A stretch of DNA of 64,000 nt from Escherichia coli (GTDB lineage: Bacteria; Pseudomonadota; Gammaproteobacteria; Enterobacterales; Enterobacteriaceae): NCBI RefSeq assembly GCF_046105845.1, contig NZ_CP151004.1. One strand, given 5' to 3'. Position 1 is the first letter of the stretch. Each line of letters begins with the position of its first letter. Made by a program: the position numbers. Shown here piece by piece: positions 52,101 through 55,100 of this stretch.

Positions 52101-55100
52101 CGTGGATCGCACGGCGAAACCGCAACTACCGATGATTGCCATCAACACCACGGCGGGTACTGCATCAGAAATGACCCGTTTTTGCATTATCACCGACGAA
52201 GCACGCCACATCAAAATGGCGATTGTGGATAAACACGTCACCCCGCTGCTTTCTGTGAACGATTCGACTCTGATGATGGGTATGCCGAAGCCGTTAACCG
52301 CCGCCACCGGGTTGGACGCGCTGACTCACGCCATCGAAGCGTATATCTCTATTGCGGCAACGCCGATCACTGACGCCTGCGCGCTGAAAGCAATGACCAT
52401 GATCGCGGAAAACTTACCGATAGCGGTTGAAGATGGTCACAACGGCAAAGCGCGTGAAGCAATGTCTTACGCTCAGTTCCTCGCGGGCATGGCGTTTAAT
52501 AATGCTTCACTGGGATACGTACACGCGATGGCGTATCAGTTGGGTGGCTTCTATGACCTGCCGCACGGCGTTTGTAATGCCATTCTGCTGCCGCACGTTC
52601 AGTTATATAACAGCAAAGTTGCCGCCGCACGCTTTGACTGCGCGGCGGCTATGGGCGTGAATGTCACAGGCAAAAACGACGCGGAAGATGCGCAAGCCTG
52701 CATTAAAGCGATTCGCGAACTGGCGAAGACAGTGAATATCCCGGCAGGCCTGCGCGATCTGAATGTGAAAGAAGAAGATTTTGCGGTGCTGACCACCAAT
52801 GCCCTGAAAGATGCGTGTGGATTCACTAACCTTATTCAGGCAACCCATGAAGAAATTGTGGCGATATATCGCGCCGCAATGTAGTTCTCTTCCCGCAACG
52901 GCTGGCGCGTTGTCAGCCGTTTTGCTGAAGATATTACTGTATTTATGATATGGATATCAGACTATTAAAATATATTCAGACCTGTTTTGGAATATCTCAA
53001 TAATATTCGTTTCATTTGCGGTCGGGGGAAGAATTACCTACTATTCGCTGAGCGTTAAGGCCTGCTAATTGATCAACTTATGATCAATCAATATGGAAAA
53101 GTTATTGTTAAATAAATAACATATCGCACGCTGAATACGTCATGAATTTTTTTCAAGAAATATGTTATTAATAGTAAAGATGATCAAATTTATAAGCTTT
53201 TTTTATCTGTAAGCTGCGCCCCTTTTTCATATGGAGATAAAAACATGGCAGCTTCAACCTTTTTCATTCCCTCTGTGAATGTAATTGGCGCGGATTCATT
53301 AAAAGATGCAATGAATATGATGGCGGATTATGGTCTGCGTCGTACATTAATTGTGACAGGCCGTGTAATGGGCAAGAGCAGCGTGTTGGTGCAACTCCAA
53401 CAAGCCTTGCAGGAACGCAATATCGTAAGCGTTGTTTATAATGGCTCCCAACCGAACCCAACGACGAAAAACGTGGCTGCGGGTTTAAAAATATTGCAGG
53501 AAAATAATTGTGATAGCGTTATCTCCTTAGGCGGCGGTTCTCCACATGACTGTGCAAAAGGGATTGCGCTGGTGGCAACCAACGGCGGCGATATCCGGGA
53601 TTACGAGGGCGTAGACCGCTCGGCGAAACCGCAATTGCCAATGATTGCCATCAACACCACGGCGGGTACGGCGTCTGAAATGACCCGTTTCTGCATCATT
53701 ACCGATGAAACGCGCCACATCAAAATGGCAATTGTGGATAAACACGTCACCCCAATTCTTTCTGTTAATGATTCTACGTTAATGATGGGGATGCCGGAGT
53801 CACTGACCGCCGCCACTGGGATGGACGCATTAACCCATGCCATCGAAGCATATGTCTCTATTGCGGCAACGCCGATCACTGATGCTTGTGCATTGAAAGC
53901 GGTCACCATGATTGCTGAAAACCTGCCGCTGGCAGTAGCAGACGGAAGCAATGCCCAGGCGCGTGAAGCTATGGCTTACGCCCAGTTCCTCGCGGGTATG
54001 GCGTTCAACAACGCATCGCTGGGTTACGTTCATGCAATGGCGCACCAGTTAGGTGGTTTTTACAACCTGCCTCACGGGGTGTGTAATGCTGTTTTGCTGC
54101 CGCATGTTCAGGAGTTCAACAGCAAAGTTGCCGCTGCACGCCTGCGTGACTGCGCGGCGGCAATGGGTGTGAATGTAATGACAATGAACGAAGCTGAAGG
54201 TGCGCAAGCTTGCATTAATGCCATTCGCGAGCTGTCGAAGAAAGTGAATATCCCGGCAGGCCTGCATGAACTGGATGTTAAAGAAGAAGATATTCCGGTA
54301 CTGGCCACCAATGCCCTGAAAGACGCATGTGGGTTTACAAACCCAATTCAGGCAACCCACGAAGAAATTATGGCGATTTATCGCGCCGCAATGTAATTAC
54401 CCTTCCTCCAGCGGCTGGCGTTTTGTCAGCCGTTTTTTTAACTATCTCAAAATTCGCGTTTTTTGAGATAGTTTCTCTTTCCTGCTATACACTATCTCAA
54501 TATTACGCTTTTTTGAGATAGGCAAATGGTTATCAAATCACCTCCCACGCTGATTCCTTTATCACACTTATCGGGTGAGGAACTCCAGGCCCACCTGCGC
54601 TTTAACCGGGTTACCGATGAAAAAGGACGTTATCTACCTTTTGATGAGTTGCAGTACCGCATCAAAAAAGGAGAAAACGTCGAAGTGGCGTGGACGCTTA
54701 CCCGTCTGGCGCGCAACGCGGCGATCCAACGAATCAATTATTGCAATGAAGCGGGTGAACAGGCCGGATACAACATTACCCCGGTGATTGCAGAAGCGTG
54801 CGAGCTTGTCGACAAACGTGCTACCGCGCTGGCGCTGAAAGATCAGACTGAACGGTTACGCGGGGCCGGAGCCGAGTTAAGCCAGTTACGCCTGGAAGAG
54901 CCGATCACCAGCTCCCAGCTGGAAGGTGCGAATACTACAACGCTGGTGGCGAGAAAAATGCTGGAAACAGGGCGGTCGCCACGCACTGAAGACGAGCATA
55001 TGATTGCAGGAAATGCCCGACTGATGGCGGAAATTCCGCACTTACTCGCAGAACCGCTGACACCTGCGCTTATTCGCCAGTTACATGCCATTGGTATGGG

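Follow-up and report, generated by a model that had tools for sequence, protein, structure and literature searches.

A Fic gene preceded by paired dyads

We analysed a 64,000-nucleotide stretch of Escherichia coli DNA (contig NZ_CP151004.1 of assembly GCF_046105845.1; hereafter, the window) in which a gene for a Fic protein is directly preceded by two inverted repeats, here called dyads, that are candidate operators of the gene. The region is approximately 96% identical to the E. coli selB–yiaY–[Fic]–aldB region. The open reading frame (ORF) at 54526–55821 on the plus strand encodes 431 amino acids of the class II Fic AMP-transferase type and matches Pfam Fic (1.4e-19), in agreement with the Fic gene that an initial annotation, made from the sequence alone, had placed downstream of the repeats.

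The spacer between the upstream alcohol dehydrogenase (ADH) gene, yiaY, and the Fic gene measures 130 bp and contains two copies of CTATCTCAA-N12-TTGAGATAG. The distal copy (O-distal, 54440–54473) has the form AACTATCTCAAAA-N8-TTTTGAGATAGTT, with 13-nt arms at 54440–54452 and 54461–54473 that are 100% complementary, a loop of 8 nt and the CTATCTCAA-N12-TTGAGATAG core at 54442–54471. The proximal copy (O-proximal, 54492–54521) is a shorter version, CTATCTCAA-N12-TTGAGATAG, with 9-nt arms at 54492–54500 and 54513–54521, also 100% complementary, and a loop of 12 nt. Neither candidate operator is assigned to a strand. A repeat search and direct reading both recovered the perfect 13-bp-arm repeat and the 9-bp-arm second copy about 50 bp away that had been described at these positions, and the second copy, reported to end 5 bp before the Fic ATG, is separated from it by the four bases GCAA (dyad end at 54521, ATG at 54526). 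The dyads are at the same time direct repeats of each other: 31 nt (54441–54471 versus 54491–54521) are 84% identical with a start-to-start distance of 50, and all five differences fall within the loops.

The full pattern, CTATCTCAA-N8-16-TTGAGATAG, is present at two positions in the window, whereas 100 dinucleotide-preserving shuffles give an expectation of 0.00, which excludes a chance origin of the dyads. The pattern count found no further full dyads in the 64 kb. The 9-mer half-site occurs eight times, compared with 0.37 expected from the shuffles.

The dyads occupy a single locus in E. coli

When 5,426 complete E. coli genomes were searched by sensitive blastn for the 90-bp dyad region, both dyads were found in 1,575 genomes and a single dyad in about 500. 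No genome had more than two places, all of them in the yiaY–aldB spacer and none on plasmids. The single locus per genome leads us to reject a generic dispersed repeat (REP/BIME, ERIC or MITE-like), and the repeat family scattered in unrelated contexts that, according to the initial annotation, would have spoken against operators was not what the motif search found in these genomes.

The Fic gene itself is present at the yiaY–aldB site in 1,572 of the 5,426 genomes (about 29%), and Fic-positive strains include O157:H7, CFT073, Nissle 1917 and ATCC 25922. Allele 1, with two dyads and Fic, is found in the window, MS1170, CFT073 and O157:H7. Allele 2 has one orphan dyad without Fic, as in E686 (locus L003, 2425–2500) and EcPF15 (L086). 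Allele 3, from K-12 (L002, 2470–2520), has only AACTATCTC left, joined to TGTAACCC (TGTAA...). The EcPF15 orphan, CTATCTCAA/TTGAGAGAG, contains one mismatch; in the E686 orphan, CTCTCTCAA/TTGAGAGAG, both arms are altered and the symmetry is restored, a compensated change. Because the Fic-less alleles carry a leftover TGTAG or TGTAA, the last codon and stop of Fic, they look like deletion derivatives that arose between the short direct repeats ACTATCTC and ACTACCCGC. The module of dyads and Fic gene occupies the same site, with the same downstream junction, in Escherichia albertii, which fits its ancestral presence and vertical descent in the two species.

Dyad and Fic gene travel together

A family scan with the protein as query and one genome per species yielded 80 loci. 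Orthologues that are 61–95% identical occur in E. albertii, Escherichia sp. ESNIH1, Salmonella diarizonae, Photorhabdus, Pantoea, Leclercia, Buttiauxella and Erwinia, in unrelated neighbourhoods. These, together with further metagenomic and plasmid copies, keep CTATCTCAA-N12-TTGAGATAG with at most two mismatches, 4–7 nt 5′ of the start codon, so that the proximal dyad accompanies orthologues of Fic across at least eight genera. Across the eight genera, agreement with the column majority is 0.96–0.97 in the arms, 0.57 in the loop and 0.50–0.58 in the flanks, and the rest of the upstream region has diverged among the orthologues that keep the dyad. The sole conserved flank is GCTA[T/A]A, directly 5′ of the left arm. 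An all-against-all ORF comparison of 21 loci returned Fic as the only common gene and no separate regulator, antitoxin, recombinase or transposase that travels with the module.

In the wider family, 37 of 79 homologue loci have a perfect 9-nt-arm inverted repeat within 100 nt upstream of the gene; dinucleotide-shuffled versions of these regions give 2.9%, and control windows 7 of 310. The arm sequence differs from clade to clade, and along with it the predicted recognition helix changes in its first residues. Three groups share a CTCAA core in the arm and a helix beginning S[D/E/Q][N/G][T/S]AR: Siccibacter and Tenebrionibacter (TCACCTCAA-N12-TTGAGGTGA), Pseudomonas and Alloalcanivorax (TCAACTCAA-N11-TTGAGTTGA) and Campylobacterota (TAACTCAAA-N8-TTTGAGTTA). 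Bacteroidota and an actinobacterium combine TTGCGAGAT... (TGCGAGAT) with SN[F/Y]TAR, Nitrospirota and an archaeal metagenome-assembled genome combine ATACTAAT... with [T/V]Y[E/Q]TAR, and several Bacteroidales combine AATTCTTGC... with SSMTAR. Further operator classes pair AATTCTTCA with SDPTAR and ATAGTAAA with SKPT. Covariation of this kind is the pattern that would be expected of a cognate protein–operator pair.

Few homologues are carried on plasmids, and no close copies were found on phages. Two plasmid loci that were fetched later fit the pattern: a Rahnella copy (60% identity) carries the CTATCTCAA dyad, and a Klebsiella IncFIB copy (39% identity, helix SYNTAR) has TTAACTCAATTT-N5-AAATTGAGTTAA five bases 5′ of its ATG. 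Homologues with 36–40% identity on plasmids of Aeromonas caviae (L197) and Vibrio alginolyticus (L199) show no clear dyad at the annotated start; either these starts are mis-annotated or the operator has been lost in this branch. In Salmonella enterica subsp. diarizonae (L006), the module is situated between 133-nt direct repeats (3729–3861 and 5373–5505) that are 86% identical and 1644 bp apart, an arrangement that points to a module inserted into a repeated sequence or to a duplication of that sequence.

A scan of metagenomes for the exact dyad returned 108 stretches; the following breakdown covers the 80 loci that were fetched. A Fic homologue adjoins the dyad in 40 of these. In 29 of the Fic-linked loci, which are of the E. 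coli type, it is the distal dyad that matches exactly, 55 nt 5′ of the start, and in the other 11, which are more divergent, the exact match is directly 5′ of the gene. Among the 40 loci without Fic, about 25 represent one coding coincidence, in which the dyad falls in the first codons (ATG GCT ATC TCA AAA ... GTT GAG ATA GAA) of an ORF of 616+ amino acids (MAISKLQLVEIEF...) from one abundant low-G+C gut organism (for example, L101 1759–1788 and L114 1338–1367). The remaining 15 or so form three small duplicate groups plus singletons and are plausibly due to chance in a database of that size. Given that the loci without Fic comprise the same coding coincidence across samples, duplicates and singletons, we rejected them as a refutation and as a repeat family.

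Two of the metagenomic loci, enterobacterial and with 58–61% G+C (L117 2936–2965 and L149 108–137), contain an exact dyad with 13-nt arms, AAACTATCTCAAT...ATTGAGATAGTTT, which has the 3′ end of cysH on one side and a CRISPR-like array on the other, the latter marked by ORFs with repeated GLSPLARGT/YPRWRGEH translations; the available sequence of these loci includes no Fic gene. An ORF 3′ of this dyad was considered as a non-Fic target and rejected, as it is a shadow ORF and the real genes, cysH and cysI, are on the other strand; the dyad could be another orphan operator. On a further, short contig (L165 86–115), a dyad with 15-nt arms lies directly 3′ of a truncated gene ending in ...EIKDLTALGLMV*, which resembles the helix-3 region (DLKKLTALGLM) of the winged helix-turn-helix (wHTH) of the Siccibacter-type Fic clade.

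The Fic protein ends in a winged helix

The catalytic motif, HPFRDGNGRTSR, occupies residues 264–275 and conforms to HxFx(D/E)GNGRxxR; H264, P265, F266, D268, G269, N270, G271, R272 and R275 are invariant in 39 homologues. The inhibitory motif, SSQLEG, is at residues 129–134 of the same chain, N-terminal to the Fic core, and conforms to the class II definition (S/T)xxxE(G/N) established in the literature and restated in PMC9755527 and PMC12249575; S129, E133 and G134 are invariant in the same homologues.

An AlphaFold2 model of the monomer, built on the 39-homologue alignment, has a mean pLDDT of 90.7. Its C terminus consists of helices at 367–378, 386–393 and 397–409 followed by strands at 413–418 and 422–427, which is a canonical winged helix, and weak Pfam helix-turn-helix (HTH) matches extend across residues 361–414. 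This winged-helix region is encoded at 55621–55812 on the plus strand, and its predicted recognition helix, SDNTARADLRTIV (residues 396–408), at 55711–55749. The best Foldseek matches among Protein Data Bank (PDB) entries are CbFic2 (8cil), SoFic (3eqx and 3zec), Dde_2494, CccR (7xux) and a Mycobacterium marinum Fic, all full-length proteins of the class II Fic-wHTH type. Model, Foldseek matches and weak Pfam HTH matches together give the protein the C-terminal wHTH that characterizes Fic-wHTH autoregulators of the CccR type. Half-site centres of the dyad are 21 bp (about 71 Å) apart, corresponding to two helical turns, and the helices of CccR are 70.2 Å apart; the AlphaFold2 model represents a monomer.

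The PADLOC SoFic model matches residues 96–427 at 3.1e-44. Because the NCBIfam SoFic equivalog model NF046030 scores only 41.9 bits against a cut-off of 550, the protein appears to be a member of a distinct subfamily with an extra N-terminal region rather than a SoFic orthologue. No small AS1-like ORF was found downstream of Fic, as aldB begins 107 nt past the Fic stop codon.

Related Fic proteins that bind DNA

A functional precedent is CccR of Yersinia pseudotuberculosis (YPK_0951, PDB 7XUX), which represses its own promoter through a palindrome, as established by electrophoretic mobility-shift assay, DNase I footprinting, isothermal titration calorimetry and a lacZ fusion (PMC9755527). Its site, AGATAATCAT-N26-ATGATAATCT, lies near the −35 and −10 boxes, and binding requires the C-terminal domain and dimerization (PMC9755527). 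The window protein shares with CccR the class II Fic type, the N-terminal inhibitory helix and the C-terminal HTH, and about 365 columns of the model can be aligned to 7xux (Foldseek E value of 2e-10). CccR is a dimer whose palindrome overlaps both the −35 and the −10; at the level of sequence, the window palindromes likewise overlap the putative −35/−10 region of the Fic gene. Sequence similarity between the two proteins is low and detectable in the Fic core alone (phmmer 1.7e-11, residues 122–289), with 17–18% identity in the fold alignment, and the window Fic has about 60–90 additional N-terminal residues. CccR is an effector of the type VI secretion system, whereas nothing suggests such a role for the window Fic.

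SoFic of Shewanella oneidensis (SO_4266; PDB 3EQX, 3ZCN and 3ZEC) shares the fold and the domain order (TM-score of 0.72, target-normalized, over about 350 columns). The SoFic dimer shows specific binding to the 100 bp immediately upstream of the start codon of its own gene (bioRxiv 10.64898/2026.07.09.737422). The window Fic scores below the SoFic equivalog cut-off, and it is a candidate only for a function in anti-phage defence. EcSofic of E. coli H397, which has the catalytic residue His194 and a small downstream antitoxin, AS1 (PMC12249575), is a different and shorter protein. The best Foldseek match is CbFic2 of Coxiella burnetii (CBU_0822, PDB 8CIL; E value of 1.1e-11, 362 columns), a class II Fic with a C-terminal wHTH. 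In CbFic2, DNA binding drives dimerization and (de)AMPylation activity towards histone H3 (PMC10628234); no operator in its own promoter has been described.

The dyads bracket a putative promoter

By manual reading of the window and comparison with orthologues, we assigned a putative promoter on the plus strand to the dyad region. The putative −35 element, TTGAGA (54463–54468), matches TTGACA at five of six positions and is the inner portion of the right arm of O-distal. The putative −10 element, TATACA (54486–54491), follows after 17 nt and abuts the proximal left arm. Transcription would then start at about 54498–54500, inside the proximal left arm, and the proximal dyad would extend from about −6 to +24. 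A weak Shine–Dalgarno-like GAGAT (54515–54519, plus strand), whose function we infer, is contained in the proximal right arm 7–8 nt 5′ of the ATG. This arm thus takes the Shine–Dalgarno position, which in the Siccibacter-type clade reads GAGGTGA; there, the right arm TTGAGGTGA is a strong Shine–Dalgarno sequence 2–3 nt 5′ of the start.

Promoter scans of orthologous loci made calls at the homologous position: TTGAGA-18-TATACT in Salmonella (L006) and in a metagenomic orthologue (L157), and TTGCTA-18-TAAAAT in Photorhabdus (L007), where only the proximal dyad is present. Of 34 distinct upstream sequences, 26 show the dual-operator layout, and its distal dyads include symmetric variants such as CTATCGCAA..TTGCGATAG. 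Operator spacing is 49–50 bp in 25 of these 26 sequences, as would follow from a distal right arm that serves as −35 and a proximal dyad placed right after the −10. The remaining sequence, a metagenome contig (L125 7498–7588), has a spacing of 61 bp, about one helical turn more, and its promoter hexamers are not obvious.

Probable autoregulation by the Fic protein

Taken together, these results suggest that the paired dyads are probably autoregulatory operators for the C-terminal winged helix of the Fic protein, through which it would repress its own promoter. The initial annotation had proposed such sites on the basis of the dyads themselves, and comparison and precedent lend the proposal support: the dyads are specific to the locus, are conserved with Fic, covary with the recognition helix and bracket the putative promoter, the protein has a wHTH fold, and CccR and SoFic provide parallels. 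We propose that each operator most likely binds one Fic dimer through the recognition helices of the two C-terminal winged-helix domains. On the distal operator, Fic would occlude the −35 element in the right arm; on the proximal operator, it would cover the site of transcription initiation together with the short leader and the ribosome-binding site. With both the −35 and the start region occupied, RNA polymerase would be excluded, and Fic expression would be low and self-limited. The outcome would be negative autoregulation of a potentially toxic AMP-transferase, as in toxin–antitoxin modules.

In type II toxin–antitoxin operons, the level of a toxic enzyme is kept low through palindromic operators, which overlap the promoter and mediate negative feedback. 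In contrast to these operons, the window Fic has its inhibitory element, toxin and DNA-binding domain in one polypeptide, and there is no separate antitoxin gene. Autoregulation of the toxin–antitoxin type has also been used as a framework for CccR (PMC9755527). The system would belong to a known kind, the CccR-type self-repressing Fic-wHTH proteins, with an operator sequence of its own and a promoter layout of two operators.

Several observations weigh against autoregulation by Fic. A promoter scan of the window made no call at TTGAGA-17-TATACA, owing to the absence of the final T from TATACA, and the alternative −10 element, TACACT (54488–54493), would mean a 19-nt spacer. The operator of CccR is one pair of 10-bp arms with a 26-bp spacer, whereas the window has two dyads at a distance of 50 bp, each with 9-nt arms around a 12-bp spacer. 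CbFic2 binds DNA without known sequence specificity (PMC10628234). Phylogeny confounds the covariation between helix and operator, since an operator class essentially corresponds to a single clade, and symmetric changes in the arms would equally be expected of an RNA or DNA hairpin. The structural model covers the monomer, and a literature search on the yiaY–aldB Fic found no paper. Finally, the approximately 500 Fic-less E. coli genomes retain one dyad, including the variant with the compensated arm change, and a site that only binds Fic would not be expected to remain symmetric without it.

If autoregulation by Fic is correct, the operator, the likely promoter and the likely self-repression offer an experimental handle for derepressing, in a controlled way, a potentially toxic AMP-transferase that is also a candidate anti-phage protein and whose gene is common in pathogenic and probiotic E. 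coli. The pairing of operator arms with recognition helices amounts to a small recognition table that could predict operators for hundreds of uncharacterized homologues, and it extends what was shown for CccR and suggested for SoFic towards a general property of the family.

Alternative explanations

There is a small chance, well below that of simple repression, that the dyads have an additional function, either allosteric, at the level of RNA, or both. Binding to the cognate dyad could drive dimerization of Fic and shift its balance between AMPylation and deAMPylation, by analogy with CbFic2. The promoter would then serve as a docking site at which the toxin is kept under control, to be released or activated upon disturbance of the DNA, for instance in a phage infection. 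If there is a second role in RNA, read-through transcripts would fold the proximal dyad over the ribosome-binding site and insulate translation of the toxin in any genomic context.

It is unlikely that the dyads function mainly as RNA hairpins, with the distal one as a back-up terminator or insulator behind yiaY and the proximal one as a leader hairpin that masks the ribosome-binding site and blocks translation of Fic, for example, in read-through transcripts. Both folds are stable as RNA (−15.0 kcal/mol and z of −7.7 for the distal dyad; −10.5 kcal/mol and z of −4.0 for the proximal dyad), but their loops of 8–12 nt are long for a regulatory hairpin. The position of the proximal right arm at the Shine–Dalgarno site, with GAGGTGA in the sister clade, would suit masking. 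However, with the conserved −10-like element immediately next to the left arm, transcription from the gene's own promoter is expected to begin within the proximal dyad, and the resulting transcripts could not fold into the hairpin; in read-through transcripts, the dyad may have a secondary role in sequestering the ribosome-binding site. Arm changes between clades are symmetric, and the Fic-less E686 orphan is compensated, as pairing would demand. Yet the arm sequence itself is near-invariant in the eight genera and its CTCAA core persists across phyla, for which pairing alone is insufficient, and uncompensated changes in a single arm occur in Pantoea, Erwinia and E. coli.

The distal half of this explanation meets a further difficulty, in that yiaY has an intrinsic terminator of its own (54410–54439, plus strand), a G+C-rich stem–loop at 54410–54434 followed by a T-run (RNA fold of −16.3 kcal/mol, z of −5.2). 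This hairpin is found in E. coli genomes both with and without Fic; it is outside the operator system and forms the upstream boundary of the operator region. The distal dyad, which consequently lies 3′ of the real terminator, appears terminator-like in a terminator scan, but only 3 of its 13 pairs are G–C and its tail, TCTCTTTCCT, is interrupted. The scan made no call for the distal dyads of the Salmonella (L006) and metagenomic (L157) orthologues. The suggestion in the initial annotation that the distal dyad helps to terminate the ADH transcript is therefore weak.

We consider it very improbable that the dyads are non-regulatory recombination or insertion scars of a mobile Fic cassette, such as element ends or att-like sites. 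The unit of dyad and Fic does occur in unrelated contexts across genera, and the Salmonella diarizonae module is flanked by direct repeats, but neither a recombinase nor a transposase accompanies the module, and its 3′ ends share no common sequence between genera. The breakpoints of the E. coli alleles fall exactly at a dyad arm, as in K-12, where AACTATCTC is joined to the TGTAA... of the Fic stop region; these alleles are more simply explained as deletions between ACTATCTC and ACTACCCGC, and the common site in E. albertii and E. coli fits vertical descent. A scar would also not preserve the fixed distance from the dyad to the start codon and to the −10-like element.

Equally remote is a role as operators of some other host transcription factor, for which one can cite that Fic is a putative binder and that orphan dyads exist in Fic-less E. 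coli and beside cysH in another enterobacterium, but which is at odds with a dyad that moves with Fic across genera and phyla in the company of no other common neighbour, changes in step with the recognition helix of Fic, occurs nowhere else in E. coli genomes at blastn sensitivity and precedes a protein whose Fic-wHTH homologues bind their own promoters.

Neighbouring genes and isolated half-sites

Upstream of the operator region, the window has yiaY-like alcohol/threonine dehydrogenase genes in tandem, at 51730–52884 and 53245–54396, the first of which is approximately 84% identical to E. coli yiaY. This tandem arrangement was found in no complete E. coli genome. In the type strain of E. albertii, the contig (L004) breaks just 5′ of the distal dyad, as expected if the same ADH duplication is present there. 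The window probably derives from E. albertii or a near relation of it rather than from E. coli. A short sequence 3′ of the first ADH copy (52982–53000), GGAATATCTCAATAATATTCG, resembles an operator half-site plus loop (ATATCTCAAT) and may be the relic of a decayed dyad, or chance.

Elsewhere in the window, four lone 9-mer half-sites (CTATCTCAA/TTGAGATAG) occur in coding regions with no partner arm, at 24027–24035, 39932–39940, 60050–60058 and 63389–63397. Single half-sites are unlikely to bind a dimer, and these four probably reflect codon-context bias.

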